Assembly: GCF_053078305.1 (NCBI RefSeq)
Contig: NZ_CP166876.1
Strand: one strand, 5' to 3'
Length of the DNA: 6,795 nucleotides
DNA from: a plasmid
Position 1 is the stretch's first letter, and each line of letters starts with the position of its first letter. The translations under genes and the position numbers were made by a program. The notes under the pieces were generated by a model. The model had not been told where the DNA came from. It saw nothing but the letters and a program-made list of their open reading frames with translations, and searched no databases. This document shows positions 1 to 6,795 of the stretch, one piece after another.

Positions 1-915
1 ATGAGCGCCGCGCTTCAATACTTCGAAGAAAATTTACCTCATCGTCCCTATCACACGGATGATCTCGCTTTCGGCCTTCGCATCTCCGGCAAAGGGCGCG
101 CTCTTCTTGCGCGCTACATCCAGCAGAACCAGCCACATGCGCAGTTCTGGCTGGTTTTTGACATTGACCGCGAGGGGGCTGCGATTGACTGGAGCGACCG
201 GAACGCTCCCGCGCCGAACATCACCGTAAAAAATCCTGTGAACGGTCATGCTCACCTGCTCTACGCGCTCAATATCGCCGTGAGAACCGCGCCGGACAGC
301 TCGGTTAAGGCGCTGAAATACGCCGCTGCGATTGAACGTTCGCTGTGTGAGAAACTTTGTGCTGATGTGAACTACAGCGGACTGATTTGCAAAAACCCGT
401 TCCACCTGGAATGGCAGGTGATGGAGTGGCGAGAGGAAGCCTATACCCTCGATGAACTGGCTGATTATCTCGATTTGAGTGCCTCAGCGCGCCGTAGCAT
501 CGATAAACATTACGGGATGGGGCGAAACTGCCACCTGTTCGAAATGACGCGCAAATGGGCTTACAGGGCGATTCGTCAGGGCTGGCCAGCATTCTCACAG
601 TGGCTTGATGCTGTGATTCAGCGTGTCGAAATGTACAACGCATCGCTTCCCGTTCCGCTTTCTCAGGCTGAATGTCGGGCTATTGGCAAGAGTATTGCGA
701 AATACACGCACAGGAACTTCACGCCGGAAACTTTCGCACAGTATGTGGCTGATACGCACACGCCAGAAATTCAGGCTACACGCGGTCGCAAGGGCGGTTC
801 TAAGTCTAAGCGCGGCACAGTAGCTACATCAGCACGCACGCTGAAACCTTGGGAGAAATTAGGGATCAGTCGCGCCTGGTATTACCAACTGAAAAAACGA
901 GGTCTCGTAGAGTAG
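1..915 (+). CDS. rep: ColE2-type plasmid replication initiator Rep (plasmid-specific primase)
   Basis: 304-aa ORF starting at window position 1. The N-terminus (MSAALQYFEENLPHRPY...QQNQPHAQFWLVFDIDREGAA...NITVKNPVNGHAHLLYAL) matches what I remember of ColE2/ColE3 Rep proteins, and its size is typical of them. A ColE2-like origin lies directly 3' of the stop codon, as in that family. Confidence 0.88.
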   Translation: MSAALQYFEENLPHRPYHTDDLAFGLRISGKGRALLARYIQQNQPHAQFWLVFDIDREGAAIDWSDRNAPAPNITVKNPVNGHAHLLYALNIAVRTAPDSSVKALKYAAAIERSLCEKLCADVNYSGLICKNPFHLEWQVMEWREEAYTLDELADYLDLSASARRSIDKHYGMGRNCHLFEMTRKWAYRAIRQGWPAFSQWLDAVIQRVEMYNASLPVPLSQAECRAIGKSIAKYTHRNFTPETFAQYVADTHTPEIQATRGRKGGSKSKRGTVATSARTLKPWEKLGISRAWYYQLKKRGLVE

Positions 916-965
916 ACCAAATAAGCCTATATCAGATAACAGCGCCTTTTTGGCGTCTTTTTGAG
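916..965 (+). other. ColE2-type replication origin (Rep binding and primer synthesis site)
   Basis: The sequence 'accaaataagcctatatcagataacagcgcctttttggcgtctttttgag' begins right after the rep stop codon. It closely resembles the ColE2/ColE3 minimal origin as I recall it (AGATAAGCC..TATCAGATAACAGCGCC), and the position immediately downstream of rep is the family arrangement. Exact boundaries are approximate. Confidence 0.6.
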
Positions 966-1038
966 CAGCTTGGTTTGTTGCTATTTCCCTCGTTGAATCC
1001 CGCAATGGCGCGGCTTTCCGCATGATTGAGGTGGTAGC

Positions 1039-1095
1039 GCTCGCCGCAGTCTCATGACCGAGCGTAGCGAGCGAATGAGCGAGGAAGCGCAAAGG
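1039..1095 (+). other. Putative single-strand initiation / primosome assembly site (ColE1/pMB1-like segment)
   Basis: The segment 'gctcgccgcagtctcatgaccgagcgtagcgagcgaatgagcgaggaagcgcaaagg' is about 75% identical, by eye, to the pMB1/pBR322 segment GCTCGCCGCAGCCGAACGACCGAGCGCAGCGAGTCAGTGAGCGAGGAAGCGGAAGAGCG. In ColE1-type plasmids that segment lies just downstream of ori in the region of the primosome assembly sites. Here it is in the same orientation and about 100 bp downstream of the ColE2-type ori. Function is inferred, not demonstrated. Confidence 0.4.
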
Positions 1096-1139
1096 TGTCG
1101 GTGGTGCATGTGGCACTTACGCGCCGGGGTTTCTCCGTT

Positions 1140-1406
1140 CTACGGTTTCGCAGGTGGTTTGGGTAGCTTCTCCAGCTCGTTAATCAGCGGTTGTATCCGG
1201 TTCACATCGGCCTGTCTTGTGACTTCCTTTCGCAGGAACTGGAGCAGGAACGCACGCAGTTGCGCCTCTTCCGGCCTCCGTACCCTCGCCAGCATGGCAG
1301 CCCCCACAATGACTTTTTGCGCCGTGTCCAGGCTCCGGCTCTTCGCCTTCAGGCGCTGTAATCTGGCCTCAGCTTCGGCAATCTTCTGTTCGAGTGTTCT
1401 GCTCAT
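1140..1406 (-). CDS. Mobilisation accessory protein, MobC-like
   Basis: 88-aa minus-strand ORF (MSRTLEQKIAEAEARLQRLKAKSRSL..KVIVGAAMLARV..) with a GGAG ribosome-binding site about 8 nt upstream of the ATG. It is divergent from the relaxase gene with the candidate oriT between them, which is the RSF1010 mobC-oriT-mobA arrangement. The basic, coiled N-terminus and the KV(I/L)VGA motif resemble RSF1010 MobC as I recall it. Confidence 0.65.
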   Translation of the reverse strand: MSRTLEQKIAEAEARLQRLKAKSRSLDTAQKVIVGAAMLARVRRPEEAQLRAFLLQFLRKEVTRQADVNRIQPLINELEKLPKPPAKP

Positions 1407-1489
1407 TTTGTGACTCCGTGCGCGGTGAAAAATCGCATTTTAGCGCGTCACTGGTAGTTGCAAAACCGAACTGGCATAATGCACGGCAC

Positions 1490-1545
1490 ATCACGAAGTG
1501 CGCACTTATACAATCTCCACTTCGTTTCGATTGTGTGCGCCCTGC
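1490..1545 (+). other. Candidate origin of transfer (oriT) with MOBQ-type nick region
   Basis: It lies in the intergenic region between the divergent mobC-like and mobA genes. It contains a perfect 12-bp palindrome 'aagtgcgcactt' (1496-1507), an inverted repeat 'acgaagtg' (1493-1500) / 'cacttcg' (1518-1524), and 'gtgcgccct' (1535-1543), which matches the RSF1010/R1162 nick region (TAAGTGCG/CCCT). The inferred nick is between 1539 and 1540. Confidence 0.5.
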
Positions 1546-1584
1546 GGGGCTGAAAGAAAACGGCAAAAAGGCATTACGGCAGAA

Positions 1585-3804
1585 ATGGCGATTTATCATC
1601 TCAGCATGAAAATCATTTCGCGAAAAAACGGCTACAGTGCCGTTGCTTCTGCTGCCTACCGTTCCGGCTCTGTCATACCCGATGACCGTACCGGATTAAC
1701 CCACGATTACACCCGTAAACGCGGCGTTGATGATGCGGTCATTCTCACCCCTGCGAATGCACCGTCCTGGTGTGGTGACCGTTCCGTTCTCTGGAATGCG
1801 GTCGAGAAAGCCGAACAGCGCCGGAACTCCCAGCTGGCAAGGGAGATTGAACTCGCCATTCCCCGTGAGATTTCCCGCGAGGCCGCACGGGAGACCGTTC
1901 TCGCTTTTGTCCGGGAAAACTTTGTCAGTCGGGGCATGATTGCCGATGTGGCGTTCCATCACATGGACCGGACCAATCCCCATGCGCACATCATGCTGAC
2001 CACGAGAGCTGTCGGGGAAACGGGATTCGCAGGAAAGGTCAGGGACTGGAACGACCGGGCACTCGCCGAGACGTGGCGCGCATCATGGGCTGACCATGCG
2101 AATAGAGCGCTTGCGAACGCCGGCTACCAGGAAGAGATAGACCATCGTTCATACGAGCGTCAGGGACTGGAGAAAGCGCCGGGCCTTCACCTCGGAAAGG
2201 CTGCCTGTGCGATGGAAAAACGGGGAATGGAAACAGAACGCGGTGAGCAGAACCGTCTGATTAACAGCCTTAACCTGGAAATACAGGTTTCCCGCACGCA
2301 GCTTGCTCTCAGGACGGTTCAGGAAGCGCAGCGTAAGCGGGAACTCAGCGATGCTGCACGTCGTGCAGCGGAAGCCCTTAACCTGACCATTCCCGCTGCG
2401 AATGCCTCAGCGGATACCCTGCGGGAATTCATTGCCACGCTGCCGCAGGAATGCGGGAACGCGTGGGAGATGACCCCGGAGTTCCTGGCGATGAGCGGGA
2501 AGGTGAACGACATCGAACGTGAGGGGAATGCGCTGCTGAAAGAGCAGGCCATTCTCGAAAAGGAGATGACCGGACTCAAAAAAGCACGCCCTGTCGCGTC
2601 CCTTCTGTCAGAGATTCCCCTGATGACATGGGCTGAACCGGAATACCGCAAAAGACAACTCCGTTTCTGGAAACTCGGGAAACAGATTGAATCTCTTCGC
2701 CGCACCTACAGGGCCGTGAAAGAACGGGACATTCCCGCCCGTCGTCAGGCCTTTGAAACGCAGTGGAATACGTGGATTGCGCCGGGAATGGCAGAGCTGA
2801 AAGAAAAACTGTCAGCACGGGAAGCGGAGCGGCGCAGGGAGGAAGCCGAAGCGGAAGCGCGCCGGAAGGAACAGGAGCATGAGGCGCGGCTGAAACGTCA
2901 TGATAACCACCGTCTGAGCCGTGAAACGGCATTAGTCGGGGTTATTACGGAGCTGGGGCGTGCCAGAGAGCCGGGAACGGGCAGGATAACCCGCTACATG
3001 ATGCTGAGTAACAGGGCCGGAGAATTCACGGTATGGGGTGATGAGCTGGCGCATTACCCCCGGAGTGTTCATGACCCGGTGAATGTTTATCTGTCGCCTG
3101 GCGGGGCTGTGATGGTCACGGATATACACGCAGGGCGGCCTGAATCTCATGAGACAATGGCGCGGCCTGAGCGTGTGAGAATGTATTCCGGTGCGACGGT
3201 CCGGCATGTACTGGAACAGATGCGCCAGGGGTGGCCCTCTTACGGTTTTCCGGCGCTGCCGCATCACTGGCCGGATAATTTTTATTTCAGCAACGACCGC
3301 AGGCCCGTAGCCTCTCCGCTACCGTCAGCGCACCGGGTGGATATCACCGCTGATGCGGCACCGGAACAACTCATGCCTGTTGTATTTTCGAGAGAGGGAA
3401 ACAGCAGGACGCTGAATCTGTTGTTGTGCAAAGGGCCGGAGGAAATGCTTGTCGGGTTTGTTCGCCGGGAAGGAGGGTTTTGCCCCGTTCTTGTGCTTCC
3501 GTCGCCGGATTACAGTCATCTGATGGTCAGCACCATCACGGAGAACGGGGTATGCCTGGCAGGTTACGGAGAAGCTATAAACCATGATGAGGATACTCCG
3601 TACCCACCGGAACCGCACCTGATGCAGTTCCGGCTCAAAGGCCATCATGACAGGCTTTTGGCTGCTGTCCACAAACCGGAAGAGATGCCGGATTATCTCT
3701 TCCGTCAACTCGGTTTTAATCAGACCTGGCATGAGTGGAAGCGGGACGAACAGCACAGGCAACAACAACGCCGCCCCGGGCACTTCCGGGGCATGAGTAT
3801 GTGA
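1585..3804 (+). CDS. mobA: Mobilisation relaxase, MobA/MobL family (MOBQ-like), with long C-terminal extension
   Basis: The N-terminus MAIYHLSMKIISRKNGYSAVASAAYRSG is the conserved MobA/MobL start, with a tyrosine at residue 25 (codon 1657-1659), the same position as the catalytic Tyr25 of RSF1010 MobA. A histidine-triad motif HHMDRTNPHAHIM sits around 1957-1995. The start is set at the in-frame ATG at 1585; the six-frame ORF begins at 1498 but that upstream stretch overlaps the oriT and lacks the family N-terminus. About 440 residues follow the relaxase domain. Confidence 0.88.
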   Translation: MAIYHLSMKIISRKNGYSAVASAAYRSGSVIPDDRTGLTHDYTRKRGVDDAVILTPANAPSWCGDRSVLWNAVEKAEQRRNSQLAREIELAIPREISREAARETVLAFVRENFVSRGMIADVAFHHMDRTNPHAHIMLTTRAVGETGFAGKVRDWNDRALAETWRASWADHANRALANAGYQEEIDHRSYERQGLEKAPGLHLGKAACAMEKRGMETERGEQNRLINSLNLEIQVSRTQLALRTVQEAQRKRELSDAARRAAEALNLTIPAANASADTLREFIATLPQECGNAWEMTPEFLAMSGKVNDIEREGNALLKEQAILEKEMTGLKKARPVASLLSEIPLMTWAEPEYRKRQLRFWKLGKQIESLRRTYRAVKERDIPARRQAFETQWNTWIAPGMAELKEKLSAREAERRREEAEAEARRKEQEHEARLKRHDNHRLSRETALVGVITELGRAREPGTGRITRYMMLSNRAGEFTVWGDELAHYPRSVHDPVNVYLSPGGAVMVTDIHAGRPESHETMARPERVRMYSGATVRHVLEQMRQGWPSYGFPALPHHWPDNFYFSNDRRPVASPLPSAHRVDITADAAPEQLMPVVFSREGNSRTLNLLLCKGPEEMLVGFVRREGGFCPVLVLPSPDYSHLMVSTITENGVCLAGYGEAINHDEDTPYPPEPHLMQFRLKGHHDRLLAAVHKPEEMPDYLFRQLGFNQTWHEWKRDEQHRQQQRRPGHFRGMSM

Positions 3805-3842
3805 TATCCGGGGCTGCACCTCGGACCCCGCCAACACATCAC

Positions 3843-3866
3843 GGGCCACAAAATTTTTTGTGGCCC
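3843..3866. terminator. GC-rich hairpin downstream of mobA (possible terminator)
   Basis: Palindrome 'gggccac aaaatttttt gtggccc' has a 7-bp GC-rich stem with an A/T loop, located 39 bp after the mobA stop. There is no clean T-run after the stem, so terminator function is uncertain. Confidence 0.35.
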
Positions 3867-3923
3867 GCTCTGCGTTTTCTAAGTGTTATCCCTCCTGATT
3901 TCTAAAAAATTTTCCACCTGAAC

Positions 3924-3952
3924 TTGACAGAAAAAACGATGACGGGTACTTT
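3924..3952 (+). promoter_or_regulatory. Putative colicin promoter (-35 TTGACA; -10 region uncertain)
   Basis: A perfect -35 hexamer 'ttgaca' at 3924-3929 lies upstream of the LexA boxes and about 110 bp upstream of the colicin ATG. The best -10 candidate about 17 bp downstream ('tacttt', 3947-3952) is weak, so exact promoter elements are uncertain. Confidence 0.5.
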
Positions 3953-3957
3953 TTGAT

Positions 3958-3988
3958 CTGTACATAAAACCAGTGGTTTTATGTACAG
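3958..3988 (+). promoter_or_regulatory. Overlapping dual LexA (SOS) boxes of a colicin operon
   Basis: The sequence 'ctgtacataaaaccagtggttttatgtacag' contains a first box CTGTACATAAAACCAG (3958-3973) and a second box overlapping its last base and ending in ACAG at 3988. This is the characteristic tandem overlapping SOS operator found upstream of colicin genes (CTGT-N8-ACAG type). Confidence 0.9.
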
Positions 3989-4036
3989 TATTAATCATGT
4001 AATTAATTGTTTTAACGCTTAAAAGAGGGAATTTTT

Positions 4037-5707
4037 ATGAGCGGTGGCGATGGACGCGGCCATAACACGGGCGCGCATAGCACAAGTGGTAACATTAATG
4101 GTGGCCCGACCGGGCTTGGTGTAGGTGGTGGTGCTTCTGATGGCTCCGGATGGAGTTCGGAAAATAACCCGTGGGGTGGTGGTTCCGGTAGCGGCATTCA
4201 CTGGGGTGGTGGTTCCGGTCATGGTAATGGCGGGGGGAATGGTAATTCCGGTGGTGGTTCGGGAACAGGCGGTAATCTGTCAGCAGTAGCTGCGCCAGTG
4301 GCATTTGGTTTTCCGGCACTTTCCACTCCAGGAGCTGGCGGTCTGGCGGTCAGTATTTCAGCGGGAGCATTATCGGCAGCTATTGCTGATATTATGGCTG
4401 CCCTGAAAGGACCGTTTAAATTTGGTCTTTGGGGGGTGGCTTTATATGGTGTATTGCCATCACAAATAGCGAAAGATGACCCCAATATGATGTCAAAGAT
4501 TGTGACGTCATTACCCGCAGATGATATTACTGAATCACCTGTCAGTTCATTACCTCTCGATAAGGCAACAGTAAACGTAAATGTTCGTGTTGTTGATGAT
4601 GTAAAAGACGAACGACAGAATATTTCGGTTGTTTCAGGTGTTCCGATGAGTGTTCCGGTGGTTGATGCAAAACCTACCGAACGTCCAGGTGTTTTTACGG
4701 CATCAATTCCAGGTGCACCTGTTCTGAATATTTCAGTTAATAACAGTACGCCAGCAGTACAGACATTAAGCCCAGGTGTTACAAATAATACTGATAAGGA
4801 TGTTCGCCCGGCAGGATTTACTCAGGGGGGTAATACCAGGGATGCAGTTATTCGATTCCCGAAGGACAGCGGTCATAATGCCGTATATGTTTCAGTGAGT
4901 GATGTTCTTAGCCCTGACCAGGTAAAACAACGTCAGGATGAAGAAAATCGCCGTCAGCAGGAATGGGATGCTACGCATCCGGTTGAAGCGGCTGAGCGAA
5001 ATTATGAACGCGCGCGTGCAGAGCTGAATCAGGCAAATGAAGATGTTGCCAGAAATCAGGAGCGACAGGCTAAAGCTGTTCAGGTTTATAATTCGCGTAA
5101 AAGCGAACTTGATGCAGCGAATAAAACTCTTGCTGATGCAATAGCTGAAATAAAACAATTTGAACGATTTGCACATGACCCAATGGCTGGCGGTCACAGA
5201 ATGTGGCAAATGGCCGGGCTTAAAGCTCAGCGGGCGCAGACGGATGTAAATAATAAGCAGGCTGCATTTGATGCTGCTGCAAAAGAGAAGGCAGATGCTG
5301 ATGCTGCATTAAGTACTGCGATGGAAAGCAGGAAGAAGAAAGAGGATAATAAAAGAGATGCTGAAGGCAAACTAAATGATGAGTTAGCAAAAAATAAAGG
5401 AAAGATACCAGGTCTAAAAATAGATCAGAAAATTAGGGGACAAATGCCAGAAAGAGGATGGACAGAGGATGATATCAAAAATACCGTATCTAACGGTGCA
5501 ACTGGTACATCTTTTGATAAGCGTAGTCCGAAGAAAACACCTCCAGACTATTTAGGTCGAAATGATCCAGCAACAGTGTATGGTTCTCCTGGTAAATATG
5601 TTGTTGTCAATGATCGTACTGGTGAGGTTACTCAGATTAGTGATAAGACAGATCCGGGTTGGGTGGACGATTCGAGAATTCAATGGGGAAATAAAAATGA
5701 CCAATAA
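4037..5707 (+). CDS. cea: E-group colicin (BtuB/Tol-dependent); C-terminal cytotoxic domain most consistent with E5-type anticodon tRNase
   Basis: 556-aa ORF with an AGAGGG ribosome-binding site upstream. The glycine-rich N-terminal translocation domain carries the TolB box DGSGW at residues 35-39 (nt 4139-4153), as in colicins E2/E3/E9. The central region is the long coiled-coil receptor-binding domain typical of E colicins. The C-terminal ~105 residues (KIPGLKIDQKIRGQMPERGW...WGNKNDQ) have no HNH motif and no histidine, which argues against the E2/E7/E8/E9 DNases; I do not recognise it as the E3 rRNase either, and it fits my recollection of the histidine-free E5 tRNase domain. It is preceded by the SOS operator and followed by immunity and lysis genes. 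Confidence 0.93.
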   Translation: MSGGDGRGHNTGAHSTSGNINGGPTGLGVGGGASDGSGWSSENNPWGGGSGSGIHWGGGSGHGNGGGNGNSGGGSGTGGNLSAVAAPVAFGFPALSTPGAGGLAVSISAGALSAAIADIMAALKGPFKFGLWGVALYGVLPSQIAKDDPNMMSKIVTSLPADDITESPVSSLPLDKATVNVNVRVVDDVKDERQNISVVSGVPMSVPVVDAKPTERPGVFTASIPGAPVLNISVNNSTPAVQTLSPGVTNNTDKDVRPAGFTQGGNTRDAVIRFPKDSGHNAVYVSVSDVLSPDQVKQRQDEENRRQQEWDATHPVEAAERNYERARAELNQANEDVARNQERQAKAVQVYNSRKSELDAANKTLADAIAEIKQFERFAHDPMAGGHRMWQMAGLKAQRAQTDVNNKQAAFDAAAKEKADADAALSTAMESRKKKEDNKRDAEGKLNDELAKNKGKIPGLKIDQKIRGQMPERGWTEDDIKNTVSNGATGTSFDKRSPKKTPPDYLGRNDPATVYGSPGKYVVVNDRTGEVTQISDKTDPGWVDDSRIQWGNKNDQ

Positions 5708-6026
5708 ATTATTTGAACATACGGTGTTATATGATAGTGGTGATGCCTTTTTTGAATTAAAAGGAAATGCTTCTATGAAGTTATCACCAAAAGCTGCAAT
5801 AGAAGTTTGTAATGAAGCAGCGAAAAAAGGCTTATGGATTTTGGGCATTGATGGTGGGCATTGGCTGAATCCTGGATTCAGGATAGATAGTTCAGCATCA
5901 TGGACATATGATATGCCGGAGGAATACAAATCAAAAATCCCTGAAAATAATAGATTGGCTATTGAAAATATTAAAGATGATATTGAGAATGGATACACTG
6001 CTTTCATTATCACGTTAAAGATGTAA
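5697..6026 (+). CDS. Colicin immunity protein (cognate inhibitor of the C-terminal nuclease domain)
   Basis: 109-aa ORF (MTNKLFEHTVLYDSGDAFFELKGN...) whose ATG at 5697 overlaps the colicin stop codon (5705-5707), the typical translationally coupled position of nuclease-colicin immunity genes. The six-frame ORF begins at 5562, but that extension lies wholly inside the colicin reading frame and is rejected. The gene is AT-rich like the cytotoxic domain. Confidence 0.85.
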   Translation: MTNKLFEHTVLYDSGDAFFELKGNASMKLSPKAAIEVCNEAAKKGLWILGIDGGHWLNPGFRIDSSASWTYDMPEEYKSKIPENNRLAIENIKDDIENGYTAFIITLKM

Positions 6027-6123
6027 ATAGTGTTATAGAATTTTATGTTTCATGGATGATTTCAACCTTTGGATTTCAGGTTTTTATGGATGAATGCCTG
6101 AGTCCATATATACAAGGAACAGT

Positions 6124-6267
6124 ATGAAAAAAATAACATGGATTATTTTATTGCTTCTTGCAGCCATTATTCTTGCTGCATGTCAGGCAAACTATATCCG
6201 CGATGTTCAGGGCGGGACTGTATCCCCGTCATCCTCAGCTGAACTGACCGGATTAGCAACGCAGTAA
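6124..6267 (+). CDS. Colicin lysis / release lipoprotein (bacteriocin release protein)
   Basis: Translation by hand gives the 47-aa protein [47 protein letters not shown], with a lipoprotein signal peptide and lipobox LAAC. It is nearly identical to the E-group colicin lysis proteins as I recall them. It is absent from the ORF track because it is short. A ribosome-binding site 'aaggaa' lies upstream. Confidence 0.9.
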
Positions 6268-6294
6268 CCCGAAATCCTCTTTGACAAGAACAAA

Positions 6295-6327
6295 GCGTGT
6301 CAGGCTGATTCTGACGCGCTTTTTTTT
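6295..6327 (+). terminator. Rho-independent terminator of the colicin operon
   Basis: A 9-bp stem 'gcgtgtcag' (6295-6303) pairs with 'ctgacgcgc' (6311-6319), with one G-U pair and a 7-nt loop, and is followed by a run of 8 T (6320-6327). It lies 28 bp after the lysis gene stop. Confidence 0.8.
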
Positions 6328-6463
6328 GAAGTGTCACAAAAATTCCATGTGGGAGATGGGATCTAAAATCCCCGTGCAGAACTTTCCATCCAGGGGGAGA
6401 AAACTTGTCGTTTTGAGCCGTTCGGTGTTCAGAACGCACGAAACCGATCGTGCATCGCTTTCG

Positions 6464-6477
6464 TGCATAGTTATGCA
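6464..6477. promoter_or_regulatory. ARG-box-like palindrome (candidate ArgR accessory site of the cer-like locus)
   Basis: Palindrome 'tgcatagttatgca' resembles the ARG box half-sites (TGAAT/ATTCA with a symmetric A-to-C change) and is centred about 120 bp upstream of the XerCD core, close to the spacing in ColE1 cer. A direct repeat 'tcgtgcat' (6448-6455 and 6461-6468) flanks it. Confidence 0.35.
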
Positions 6478-6578
6478 ACGCGCTAAAAACGATTCTGACG
6501 CATTTTTTATGTTTACCCTGGTGTTTCCTTGTCTTTTTGTTTTTTTTGCGTCAGAAAGCGATTGAGGGTGTTTTAAGG

Positions 6579-6606
6579 GGTGCGTACAACGGGAGTTATG
6601 GTAAAT
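6579..6606 (+). other. XerC/XerD site-specific recombination core (cer-like multimer resolution site)
   Basis: The sequence 'ggtgcgtacaa cgggag ttatggtaaat' has a XerC arm identical to ColE1 cer (GGTGCGTACAA), a 6-bp central region (cer has 8 bp) and a XerD arm TTATGGTAAAT identical to cer. About 180 bp of upstream accessory sequence (about 6400-6578) includes the ARG-box-like palindrome. Confidence 0.8.
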
Positions 6607-6619
6607 GGATCGGGTTTTG

Positions 6620-6795
6620 GGGAATAATCGACAGGGTTTGCCGTTGGGTGTAGTGTAAGCGACTGAAAAACAAACGCCCCGTAAATCGTGCTCTCACCGC
6701 CAAGATTGATCACGAAATTACAGGGCGCCGGGTTCCGCGTCTCCCGATGGGAAAGCGCGGTTAGTTAAACTGTGTACCGAGAGGAATCGTAACAC
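6620..6795 (+). promoter_or_regulatory. Presumed rep leader / copy-number control region (rep promoter, antisense-RNA target), continuing into rep at position 1 if the molecule is circular
   Basis: A ribosome-binding site 'gagagg' (6778-6783) sits about 12 nt before the window end, positioned for the rep ATG at 1 across the circular junction. An imperfect stem-loop 'ccgcgtctccc gat gggaaagcgcgg' is at about 6757-6780. A candidate sigma70 promoter has -35 'tcgaca' (6628-6633) and -10 'tagtgt' (6651-6656). ColE2-type replicons control Rep translation with an antisense RNA against this leader; the exact RNA ends cannot be set from sequence. Confidence 0.35.

Follow-up and report, generated by a model that had tools for sequence, protein, structure and literature searches.

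Gene content and mosaic structure of a colicin E5 plasmid of the ColE2 replicon family

Results

Overall organization

The window, that is, the whole stretch of 6,795 nucleotides that was analyzed, carries a ColE2-type replication region, a mobilization region, a colicin E5 operon, and a cer-like recombination site (Table 1). The mechanisms of replication, copy control, stability, transfer, and toxin action that we outline for these regions are established for the plasmid family, and for this plasmid they are inferred from sequence identity.

Table 1. Features assigned in the window (positions are those of the window; a dot marks features given without a strand)
Feature	Position	Strand	Basis or detail
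rep, ColE2-type plasmid-specific primase/initiator, 304 aa	1..915 (ATG 1, TAG 915)	+	Pfam Replicase PF03090 7e-44, PriCT_1
ori, ColE2/ColE3-type minimal origin, overlapping the rep stop codon, directly 3'	914..946	+	aligns to ColE2-P9, ColE3-CA38
Probable primosome-assembly/single-strand initiation site	1034..1122	.	79% identity to ColE1 NC_001371 positions 1306-1395
mobC-like relaxase accessory gene, 88 aa	1140..1406	-	ORF, divergent from mobA
oriT, mobC-mobA intergenic region, 178 bp	1407..1584	.	length equals mapped MOBQ4 oriT
mobA, MOBQ4 relaxase, 739 aa	1585..3804	+	Pfam MobA_MobL 2e-70
GC-rich hairpin 3' of mobA with central A4T6 run, probable bidirectional terminator	3843..3866	.	inverted repeat
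Colicin SOS promoter with two overlapping LexA boxes	3924..3988	+	TTGACA 3924-3929, 17 nt, TACTTT 3947-3952
Colicin E5, 556 aa (T domain, BtuB-binding R domain, tRNase domain)	4037..5707	+	Pfam
E5-specific cassette, 695 bp (nuclease domain, immunity gene, part of spacer)	5384..6078	+	segment alignment
immE5, 109 aa; start overlaps last 11 nt of colicin gene	5697..6026	+	PDB, Pfam
Colicin release (lysis) lipoprotein, 47 aa, lipobox LAAC	6124..6267	+	Pfam Lysis_col 1e-22
Intrinsic terminator, colicin operon	6292..6322	+	13-bp stem, then T-run
cer-like multimer resolution site (left edge approximate)	6329..6606	+	accessory region + Xer core
rep leader (~130 nt) with candidate promoter	6628..6795	+	TCGACA 6628-6633, 17 nt, TAGTGT 6651-6656
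Predicted antisense RNAI, ~114-115 nt (RNA ends inferred)	6666..6779	-	two-hairpin fold + U-run terminator

Replication region

The rep product has the domain architecture of ColE2-type (class C theta) initiators, namely a primase (Replicase) domain, a PriCT domain (PriCT_1, PF08708; 6e-5, above the Pfam cut-off), and a C-terminal DNA-binding domain that matches that of ColE2-P9 Rep (PDB 3vw4, 3e-56) with a 9-aa insertion. An origin of ~32 bp lies immediately downstream of rep, which is the arrangement of ColE2-type (class C theta) replicons and has been described, with a 32-bp ori, for the ColE2-like plasmid family (PMC6856555). This origin is identical to that of ColE3-CA38, including an extra A that ColE2-P9 lacks (CCTATATC versus CCT-TATC). 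Rep would act as a plasmid-specific primase that binds the ~32-bp ori just 3' of its own gene and primes the leading strand.

The leader of rep is found at the far end of the window. Its candidate promoter, which scores under the threshold of a consensus scan, is kept in all leader variants. The earlier note had placed a leader stem-loop at the window end and a ribosome-binding site ahead of the rep ATG after joining of the ends, and both were recovered: the stem-loop is real and lies at 6735-6760, and the GAGG core of a purine-rich SD-like element (GAGAGGAA at 6779-6786) ends 11 nt ahead of the joined ATG. This spacing is slightly above optimal, yet it is conserved in all leader variants.

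On the opposite strand we predict an antisense RNAI composed of stem-loop I (complement of 6735-6760), stem-loop II (6728 to 6675), and a U-run terminator. The opposite-strand fold has an energy of -44.1 kcal/mol (z = -2.9), and the terminal hairpin with its U-run was recovered in nine out of nine divergent leader variants; alignment-based covariation over 8 leader variants is weak, and the predicted RNA has no matching family in Rfam. The arrangement of two hairpins and a terminator agrees with the antisense RNAI published for ColE2, whose rep has been reported to be under antisense control (PMC5304414, PMC6856555). The elements of a putative RNAI promoter are TTGAAG (complement of 13-18) and, after 16 nt, TGT-TACGAT (complement of 6786-6791), and therefore this promoter would span the 6795|1 junction. 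Across the rep leader, the ~115-nt RNAI would throttle Rep translation and thereby control the copy number.

Mobilization region

Between ori and the mobilization genes lies a segment that aligns with ColE1 (pairwise E 4e-15), GAGCGAGGAAGCG included. From the PriA sites of ColE1 and pBR322 we take it to be a putative primosome site, which probably serves the lagging strand.

The mobC-like product is the same protein as annotated in sibling plasmids (WP_000091750/55), and searches at E values up to 10 returned no Pfam or NCBIfam family for it, chance-level matches aside. Membership in the Pfam MobC family (PF05713) was considered and rejected, as the profile match is absent; the name reflects position and function, following the protein named MobC in MOBQ4 plasmids, which is non-essential for mobilisation (PMC6856555). 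A small accessory gene that diverges from the relaxase gene, with exactly 178 bp between the two, is the layout of the MOBQ4 module, in which a 178-bp intergenic oriT was mapped experimentally (PMC6856555). Comparison with the same work shows that the catalytic residues of MobA are present (Y25, E87, E89, H125, H133, H135), which are the tyrosine of motif I, the two glutamates of motif II, and the three histidines of motif III in MOBQ relaxases. MobA matches the NCBIfam MobQ equivalog with 262 bits (cut-off 200), while the profile search matched no family in residues 216-739. Within the intergenic region, AAGTGCGCAC at 1496-1505 resembles MOBQ nic regions and is a candidate nic site. MobA would nick the 178-bp oriT together with the divergent MobC-like helper, allowing transfer by helper conjugative plasmids.

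Colicin E5 operon

The operon has the organization of group A nuclease (E-type) colicin operons, in which an SOS promoter with overlapping LexA boxes is followed by the col, imm, and lys genes. The LexA boxes (3958-3973 and 3973-3988) form a perfect 15+15 palindrome, CTGTACATAAAACCA/TGGTTTTATGTACAG. The colicin matches the Pfam families Cloacin (2e-102), E2R135, and Colicin_E5 (4e-33); its T domain has a TolB box (DGSGW) at aa 35, and residues 1-452 match the structures of colicins E3 and E9. The last 115 residues are identical (115/115) to the E5 nuclease domain (PDB 2dfx_E), and the immunity protein is identical (109/109) to the colicin E5 immunity protein (PDB 2fhz_A; Pfam ImmE5, 6e-26); it is via these two proteins that ColE5-099 was compared. 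The parts of an E-type colicin operon of E5 specificity are present, namely E-type T and R domains, the E5 tRNase domain, and the cognate ImmE5. DNA damage would lift the LexA repression of the operon, colicin E5 would be made as an ImmE5-bound complex, and the lysis lipoprotein would release this complex.

Cer-like site

The Xer core at 6579-6606, GGTGCGTACAA-CGGGAG-TTATGGTAAAT, has the order XerC arm, central region, XerD arm, and both 11-nt arms are identical to those of ColE1 cer, whereas the central region has 6 bp instead of 8 bp in ColE1. At 6463-6478, an ARG-box-like palindrome (TGCATAGTTATGCA) occupies a position colinear with that of TTGCATAGGTATTCAT in ColE1 (offset 146 versus 148). 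This accessory-region palindrome matches ColE1 weakly at the local level (E 0.5), and identity over the aligned cer region together with the core is 46%. A cer-like site has been reported for the MOBQ42/ColE2-like plasmid family (PMC6856555), and Xer recombination at this site would resolve plasmid multimers and contribute to stability.

Comparison with known plasmids

The MOBQ42/ColE2-like colicin plasmids, with ColE9-J as the prototype, were defined by Garcillan-Barcia et al. 2019 (PMC6856555). With this family the plasmid shares a ColE2-type Rep (PF03090 and PF08708), an ori 3' of rep, RNAI control (predicted here), and a cer-like site. Also in common are mobC and mobA genes in divergent orientation, with the 178-bp oriT between them, and a colicin operon of the group A nuclease type. 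It belongs to a standard, already-known type of the MOBQ42/ColE2 family and is nothing new in this respect. ColE9-J itself differs in having another, shorter type of rep leader and RNAI and a more divergent ori region, and it carries colicin E9 plus an E5 remnant only.

The closest relatives are three 6795-bp circular plasmids of E. coli O111:H8/H-, namely pO111-110512_4 (NZ_AP019765.1), p2009C_3675-3 (NZ_CP077534.1), and pDEC8E-3 (NZ_CP077468.1), which have the length and gene order of the window and align to it without gaps; they encode the same Rep, colicin E5, and ImmE5 proteins as the window. Position-for-position comparison of the rotated window gave 54 differences from NZ_AP019765.1 and 37 from NZ_CP077534.1. 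Nearly all of the 37-54 nt by which these siblings differ fall in mobA, at 2298-2457 and 3004-3359, and correspond to 10-15 amino acid changes in MobA. In addition, the cer-like core has a difference in its XerC arm, with G at 6582 in the window and A in the O111 siblings. No record in the collections searched was 100% identical to the window, the closest being the one with 37 differences, and judged from these alignments the plasmid appears to be an unrecorded minor recombinant.

The same E5 cassette was found on other replicons, with a ColE2-P9-type Rep in 6774-bp plasmids of S. sonnei and with the 311-aa Col156 Rep in pL4. ColE3-CA38 (NZ_KM287568.1) and ColE2-P9 (NZ_KY348421.1) have a colicin T domain 100% identical to that of the window and share its leader/RNAI type (3-5 mismatches per 100 nt), while nt 1-700 of rep are only ~81% identical. 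Their nuclease and immunity modules are unrelated to those of the window (rRNase in ColE3-CA38, E3; DNase in ColE2-P9, E2). Relative to the window, ColE2-P9 lacks 9 aa in the Rep DNA-binding domain. ColE1 (NC_001371.1), apart from the cer features described above, resembles the window in the primosome-site region (79% identity) and in the colicin SOS promoter and lysis gene (77%), but differs in its unrelated replicon, which works with RNAII/RNAI and has no Rep, in its relaxase (MOBP), and in its colicin, which is pore-forming.

Base composition

The earlier note had set a GC-rich backbone against an AT-rich colicin 3' end, immunity gene, and lysis gene. The contrast holds: raw GC is 0.54-0.58 in the backbone, 0.39 in the colicin nuclease domain, 0.34 in imm, and 0.44 in lys, with a drop from ~0.57 to 0.32-0.40 over 5250-6150. 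A break inside the colicin gene, on the other hand, was not upheld. GC3 is already 0.33 in the T domain, 0.31 in the R domain, and 0.24 in the nuclease domain, compared with 0.58-0.67 in the backbone. Since GC3 is low over the whole colicin gene, the composition boundary is placed at ~3805-3900, at the colicin promoter. Owing to the glycine-rich N-terminus of the colicin, raw GC does not show this. ColE2-P9 and ColE3-CA38 have the same break between backbone and operon. The whole operon is AT-rich, as it also is in these two plasmids, and this AT-richness is an old trait of E-colicin operons and no sign of a recent import here.

Mosaic structure

The nearest relative of the window switches segment by segment, even within rep and mobA, which agrees with the view of a mosaic plasmid taken in the earlier note and shows a mosaicism that is wider than a split between backbone and toxin. 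Relative to ColE3-CA38, rep is chimeric, with 132 mismatches in nt 1-700 and none in nt 701-915, and further recombination joints were found in the rep leader, in mobA (recombinant patches at ~2298-2457 and ~2981-3420), and around cer. The 695-bp E5 cassette has no alignment to ColE2-P9, ColE3-CA38, ColE8, or the ETEC1731 E2 plasmid and is 100% identical in other E5 plasmids; ColE9-J carries its 3' part, from 5558 on, as the known E5 remnant. Judged from these alignments, the actual module swap is this nuclease-immunity cassette, as one joint among many.

The earlier note had suggested that the toxin, immunity, and lysis genes came from a different source. In its strict form, this reading holds that nothing but the 3' end of the colicin gene and the genes for immunity and lysis is foreign, recently acquired from an AT-rich source by a uniformly GC-rich backbone. 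We consider it unlikely. The fall in raw GC and the cassette without homologues in E2, E3, and E8 plasmids speak for it, and the exchange of the E5 nuclease and immunity segment indeed stands; however, the T domain with its low GC3 is the one common to ColE2 and ColE3, these plasmids show the same compositional contrast, and the joints extend to rep, leader, mobA, and cer. The lysis gene with its flanks also speaks against it, being homologous in all E plasmids (93-100%).

In the preferred reading, homologous recombination between E-colicin plasmids that circulate together produced the patchwork, and a make-up of this kind is usual in the family. The leader and the N-terminal portion of rep are of the ColE8 type. 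The DNA-binding domain of Rep and the ori are identical to those of ColE3-CA38, and the colicin T domain is identical to that of ColE2 and ColE3. The nuclease-immunity cassette is the canonical E5 one, and one mobA patch is otherwise found only in a few unrelated plasmids.

The differences from the siblings are tightly clustered. Of the 54 that separate the window from one sibling plasmid, 49 are confined to 20% of the plasmid (binomial P = 3e-29), and 20 of the 37 from NZ_CP077534.1 fall in 3004-3359. Such clustering could also result from an assembly chimera, in which two co-resident MOBQ42 plasmids were merged into one consensus, and a further plasmid of the MOBQ42 group can be present in E. 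coli O111 strains, an example being NC_013367 (8140 bp, pO111_4 type). We regard this as quite improbable: the allele at 2981-3420 differs from that of pO111_4 (96.2%) and is found at 100% identity in only seven plasmid records, which are intact plasmids of unrelated hosts, and at 99.8% in an eighth (~96% in the siblings). Moreover, the same type of patchwork separates many independently assembled records, and therefore natural recombination is the simpler reading.

Within MobA, substitutions are dense at aa 239-289 and 493-575, including 10 changes in 24 nt at 3118-3141. One might speculate, although we give the idea only a small chance, that these patches in the C-terminal two-thirds reflect recurrent gene conversion and diversifying selection on a domain that sets the specificity for the helper plasmid (coupling protein). 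Colicin plasmids would then have, in this region of MobA, another arms-race locus in addition to the toxin-immunity pair.

Closure and completeness

The same-length, gapless colinearity with the circular siblings argues that the window is an entire plasmid opened at the rep start codon. An 80-mer over the 6795|1 junction has exact, internal matches in five circular records, so the window ends join. The complement of a small plasmid with little unassigned DNA, expected by the earlier note, is likewise borne out, as every named element was found and the non-coding share of 18.5% is nearly all assigned to features. The window is almost certainly a complete 6.8-kb circular mobilisable colicin E5 plasmid of the ColE2 replicon family (MOBQ42), linearised at the rep start codon.

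We give hardly any credence to the alternative that the window is no free plasmid but was cut in silico out of a larger replicon, into which a ColE2-type element had integrated or with which it had formed a cointegrate. Remnants of this type were indeed found in large IncF plasmids (window 6640-6690 has matches in ~400 conjugative records, and pEC732_2 has 6352-6690 joined to rep nt 118-761), and E. coli genomes gave seven chromosomal matches. The IncF-type remnants, however, are truncated, without the leader 3' end, RBS, and start codon, whereas the intact window equals the three siblings exactly in length and has ends that abut with no gap or duplication. The start of the record at the rep ATG follows a database convention, and the comparators NZ_CP122820.1 and NZ_CP100536.1 likewise open there.

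Plasmid identity and circularity

Megablast comparison showed that 100% of the window is covered by 6795-bp circular plasmids of E. coli O111:H8/H- (hereafter, the O111 siblings), and near-identical siblings have been deposited from O111 Shiga-toxin-producing E. coli. After rotation, two of these plasmids, NZ_AP019765.1 and NZ_CP077534.1, aligned to the window position for position with 0 gaps and with 54 and 37 substitutions, respectively. In addition, the last 40 and the first 40 bases of the window were joined into an 80-mer spanning the 6795|1 junction (last base to first base), which was found as an exact, internal match in five circular records whose coordinates begin elsewhere. The gap-free rotation match and the internal junction 80-mer together indicate that nothing is absent or doubled at the junction. 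As far as sequence comparison shows, the window is the whole circle opened at the rep ATG, as proposed in the earlier note, which had taken it for an entire plasmid linearised at the rep start codon. Two comparator records also have this ATG as their first base; the start point reflects a record convention and not biology.

Six genes were convincingly identified in the window, along with a series of known cis-acting sites (table below). The non-coding share is 18.5%, and very little of it is left unexplained after the site assignments, in line with the previous impression of little unassigned DNA. The defining features that can be tested in silico were found, with the antisense RNA and the ArgR box of the cer-like site as predicted elements: the window is a standard ColE2-family, MOBQ42 (the literature name for this plasmid group), group A nuclease colicin plasmid with canonical colicin E5 and its immunity protein ImmE5. 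This plasmid type is already known, and the only unrecorded point is how its mobA alleles are combined. The importance of the case is small; it shows that sequence alone suffices for recognising a complete plasmid and the place where it was linearised.

Genes and sites assigned in the 6,795-nt plasmid
Feature	Position	Strand	Characteristics
rep	1-915	+	ATG start; Pfam Replicase (7e-44) and PriCT_1
ori	914-946		Begins within rep stop codon; identical to ColE3-CA38 ori
Probable PriA-type primosome assembly / single-strand initiation site	1034-1122		Between ori and mobC; 79% identity to ColE1 1306-1395
Small mobC-like ORF	1140-1406	-	88 aa; divergent from mobA
mobA	1585-3804	+	Pfam MobA_MobL (2e-70); NCBIfam MobQ equivalog, 262 bits (cut-off 200)
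Two overlapping LexA boxes in the putative colicin promoter region	3958-3988		Perfect 15+15 palindrome
Colicin E5 gene	4037-5707		E-type translocation and receptor part, tRNase domain
Immunity gene (ImmE5)	5697-6026		Overlaps last 11 nt of colicin gene; 109/109 identical to PDB 2fhz_A
Lysis lipoprotein gene (lys)	After immunity gene		47 aa; Pfam Lysis_col (1e-22)
Strong terminator	6292-6322		3' of lys
Xer core	6579-6606		GGTGCGTACAA-CGGGAG-TTATGGTAAAT

Mosaic structure

A comparison of the window with 12 relatives, run both per segment and in bins of 100 nt, showed that the closest relative differed by segment, which supports the earlier description of the plasmid as a mosaic. In rep 1-700, the O111 siblings and the E9 plasmid pLH10 have 0-2 mismatches and ColE8 has six, while ColE9-J, pL4, and ETEC1731 have about 40, and ColE2-P9, ColE3-CA38, and the S. 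sonnei E5 plasmids about 132. For rep 701-915 together with ori, the nearest relative is ColE3-CA38, identical save for a single mismatch that lies immediately 3' of the minimal ori. The last 70 nt of the leader (6726-6795) are of the ColE8 and ColE2/E3 type; ColE9-J, pL4, and ETEC1731 have a shorter leader that is unalignable to this segment. The colicin translocation (T) domain is identical to those of ColE2-P9 and ColE3-CA38 and 94% identical to those of ColE8 and ColE9. Finally, the E5 cassette (5384-6078; the nuclease domain, the immunity gene, and part of the spacer) is found in E5 plasmids only, with the part from 5558 onward also present in the E5 remnant of ColE9-J, and is absent from E2, E3, and E8 plasmids. 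It occurs with three Rep types, of 304, 297, and 311 aa.

Differences from the siblings are concentrated in the mobilisation region: 49 of the 54 substitutions relative to NZ_AP019765.1 fall within 1983-3321, or 20% of the plasmid (binomial P = 3e-29). Roughly 110 plasmids have mobA in common with the window, and borders between modules were placed at 700, 2298-2457, 2981-3420, 5384, 6078, and 6726. All comparators except ETEC1731, including the O111 siblings, have 15-25 mismatches in mobA 2981-3420, and an assembly chimera could in principle have brought such a combination of mobA alleles together. The probability of this explanation is low; ETEC1731 has 0 mismatches in the same segment, six further plasmid records match it at 100%, and an eighth at 99.8%. 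We retain the reading of a mosaic plasmid, in which the mobA segments, the toxin-immunity cassette, the region controlling rep, and the region that sets Rep/ori specificity assort independently. According to PMC5304414, Hiraga et al. 1994 found such patchwork in ColE2-related replicons, and MOBQ42 plasmids have likewise been described as patchwork (PMC6856555). The present plasmid is a clear example of modular exchange of the kind known from earlier descriptions of ColE2-family and E-colicin plasmids.

Base composition

The contrast in base composition seen by eye is real, with raw GC falling from about 0.57 in rep/mob to 0.32-0.40 across the 3' part of the colicin gene and imm. However, this contrast, on which the proposal was based that the AT-rich colicin 3' end, immunity, and lysis genes form a module from a separate source, looks different at third codon positions. 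Third-position GC is 0.58-0.67 in rep, mobC, and mobA, and it is low from the T domain on (T domain 0.33, receptor R domain 0.31, nuclease domain 0.24, imm 0.28, lys 0.38); the T-domain shift is hidden in raw GC because this domain is glycine-rich (GGN codons). The real compositional boundary is thus the colicin promoter, at about 3805-3900, which raw GC conceals. Since ColE2-P9 and ColE3-CA38 have the same contrast between backbone and operon, it is an old trait of E-colicin operons rather than one peculiar to this plasmid.

Colicin operon

Colicin residues 1-452 match the structures of colicins E3 and E9, and the final 115 residues are the E5 tRNase domain of PDB 2dfx (115/115 identical). 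The colicin promoter region is 77% identical to that of ColE1. The product of 5697-6026 matches, residue for residue, the colicin E5 immunity protein whose crystal structure is PDB 2fhz_A, but RefSeq/PGAP gives the gene the name 'colicin transporter' in all of the relatives inspected. The name looks like a propagated annotation error, brought to light here as a by-product. The Pfam model covers 27-107, in agreement with the start at M27 of the older, 83-aa version of ImmE5.

Replication genes and sites

The C-terminal domain of Rep resembles the DNA-binding domain of ColE2-P9 Rep (PDB 3vw4, 3e-56), with a 9-residue insertion. The identity of ori with that of ColE3-CA38 includes an extra A that the ColE2-P9 ori lacks. 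Shinohara and Itoh reportedly found in 1996 that ColE3 versus ColE2 Rep-ori specificity is set by the extra ori nucleotide and the 9-aa Rep insertion; both ColE3 states are present in the window. The segment between ori and mobC, whose match to ColE1 includes GAGCGAGGAAGCG, we take to be probably a PriA-type primosome assembly site.

Rep leader and predicted antisense RNA

Both leader elements expected at the window end are present, a stem-loop at 6735-6760 and a ribosome-binding site, GAGAGGAA, at 6779-6786. The spacing of the latter, previously called correct for the joined ends, is conserved but not ideal: the 11 nt from the end of the GAGG core to the rep ATG across the junction are slightly long for a Shine-Dalgarno sequence, yet are kept in all of the leader variants inspected.

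Between about 6779 and 6666, the minus strand is predicted to fold as a pair of hairpins with UUUGUUUUU after them (-44.1 kcal/mol, z = -2.9). RNAalifold on eight of nine leader variants gave a weak covariation signal, with just two compensatory pairs and a positive covariation term, partly caused by stems misaligned by MAFFT. Weight is placed instead on independent folds of the divergent leader variants, which recovered the terminal hairpin and U-run in 9 of 9. The modelled two-hairpin fold agrees with the control system published for ColE2, where translation is blocked by a small antisense RNA that is complementary to the 5' untranslated region of rep (PMC5304414, PMC6856555). A plausible promoter for the antisense RNA is TTGAAG, 16 nt, TGT-TACGAT; with its -35 in rep codons 5-6 and its -10 at 6786-6791, it would exist only when the ends are joined. 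A consensus promoter scan did not list the putative colicin, rep, and RNAI promoters, each of which scores 8-9/12 or fewer. The whole window gave no Rfam match at E up to 1, thus neither ColE2 RNAI nor any cer transcript has a curated model there.

Comparison of 6726-6795 with relatives L006, L008, and L014-L020 revealed two leader architectures in the family. In the ColE2/E3/E8 type, the conserved hairpin is separated from the ATG by about 70 nt, which include the extra stem-loop at 6735-6760; the Col156/ColE9-J type is shorter (about 36-40 nt). The long type is limited to about 50 of the 1111 plasmid records that match.

About 400 large conjugative plasmids, mostly IncF, also match the rep control region over its first 51 nt. 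In pEC732_2 (NZ_CP015140.1, 2213-3181), the cer-like region and leader (window 6352-6690) are joined directly to rep nt 118-761. This segment is a dead ColE2-type replicon remnant, without the 3' half of the RNAI target, the ribosome-binding site, and the start codon, but is still typed as rep_cluster_2131. Such remnants, present in many IncF plasmids, can confuse replicon typing.

Mobilisation module

MobA contains Y25, E87, E89, H125, H133, and H135, the catalytic set listed for MOBQ4 relaxases (PMC6856555). Exactly 178 bp separate mobC from mobA, and the intergenic oriT that was mapped by experiment in PMC6856555 has this length. No Pfam or NCBIfam family was found for the MobC-like protein; the Pfam MobC family was rejected for lack of a profile match, and the 'mobC' label is valid only by position and function, as used in PMC6856555. 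For MobA residues 216-739, NCBIfam gave no match, nor did Pfam with the E limit relaxed to 10. The recombinant patches are densest in these C-terminal 524 residues (window 2230-3804), at aa 239-289 and aa 493-575, with 10 substitutions in the 24 nt of 3118-3141.

Cer-like site and nearby repeats

Both Xer arms are identical to those of ColE1 cer, whose centre is 8 bp compared to 6 bp here, and a TGCATAGTTATGCA palindrome lies upstream at a distance about equal to that of the cer ArgR box. The XerC arm (position 6582), GGTGCGTACAA, is shared with ColE1 cer and ColE3-CA38, whereas the O111 siblings and most relatives have GGTACGTACAA and ColE2-P9 has GGGGCGTACAA. An 18-nt direct repeat, GATTCTGACGC(G/A)(C/T)TTTTT, occurs at 6307-6324 and 6491-6508, 184 nt apart. 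Of the two copies, the one at 6307-6324 forms the descending arm of the terminator of the colicin operon; the other is part of the cer accessory region and has an inverted partner, TGCGTCAGAA, beside it at 6547-6556.
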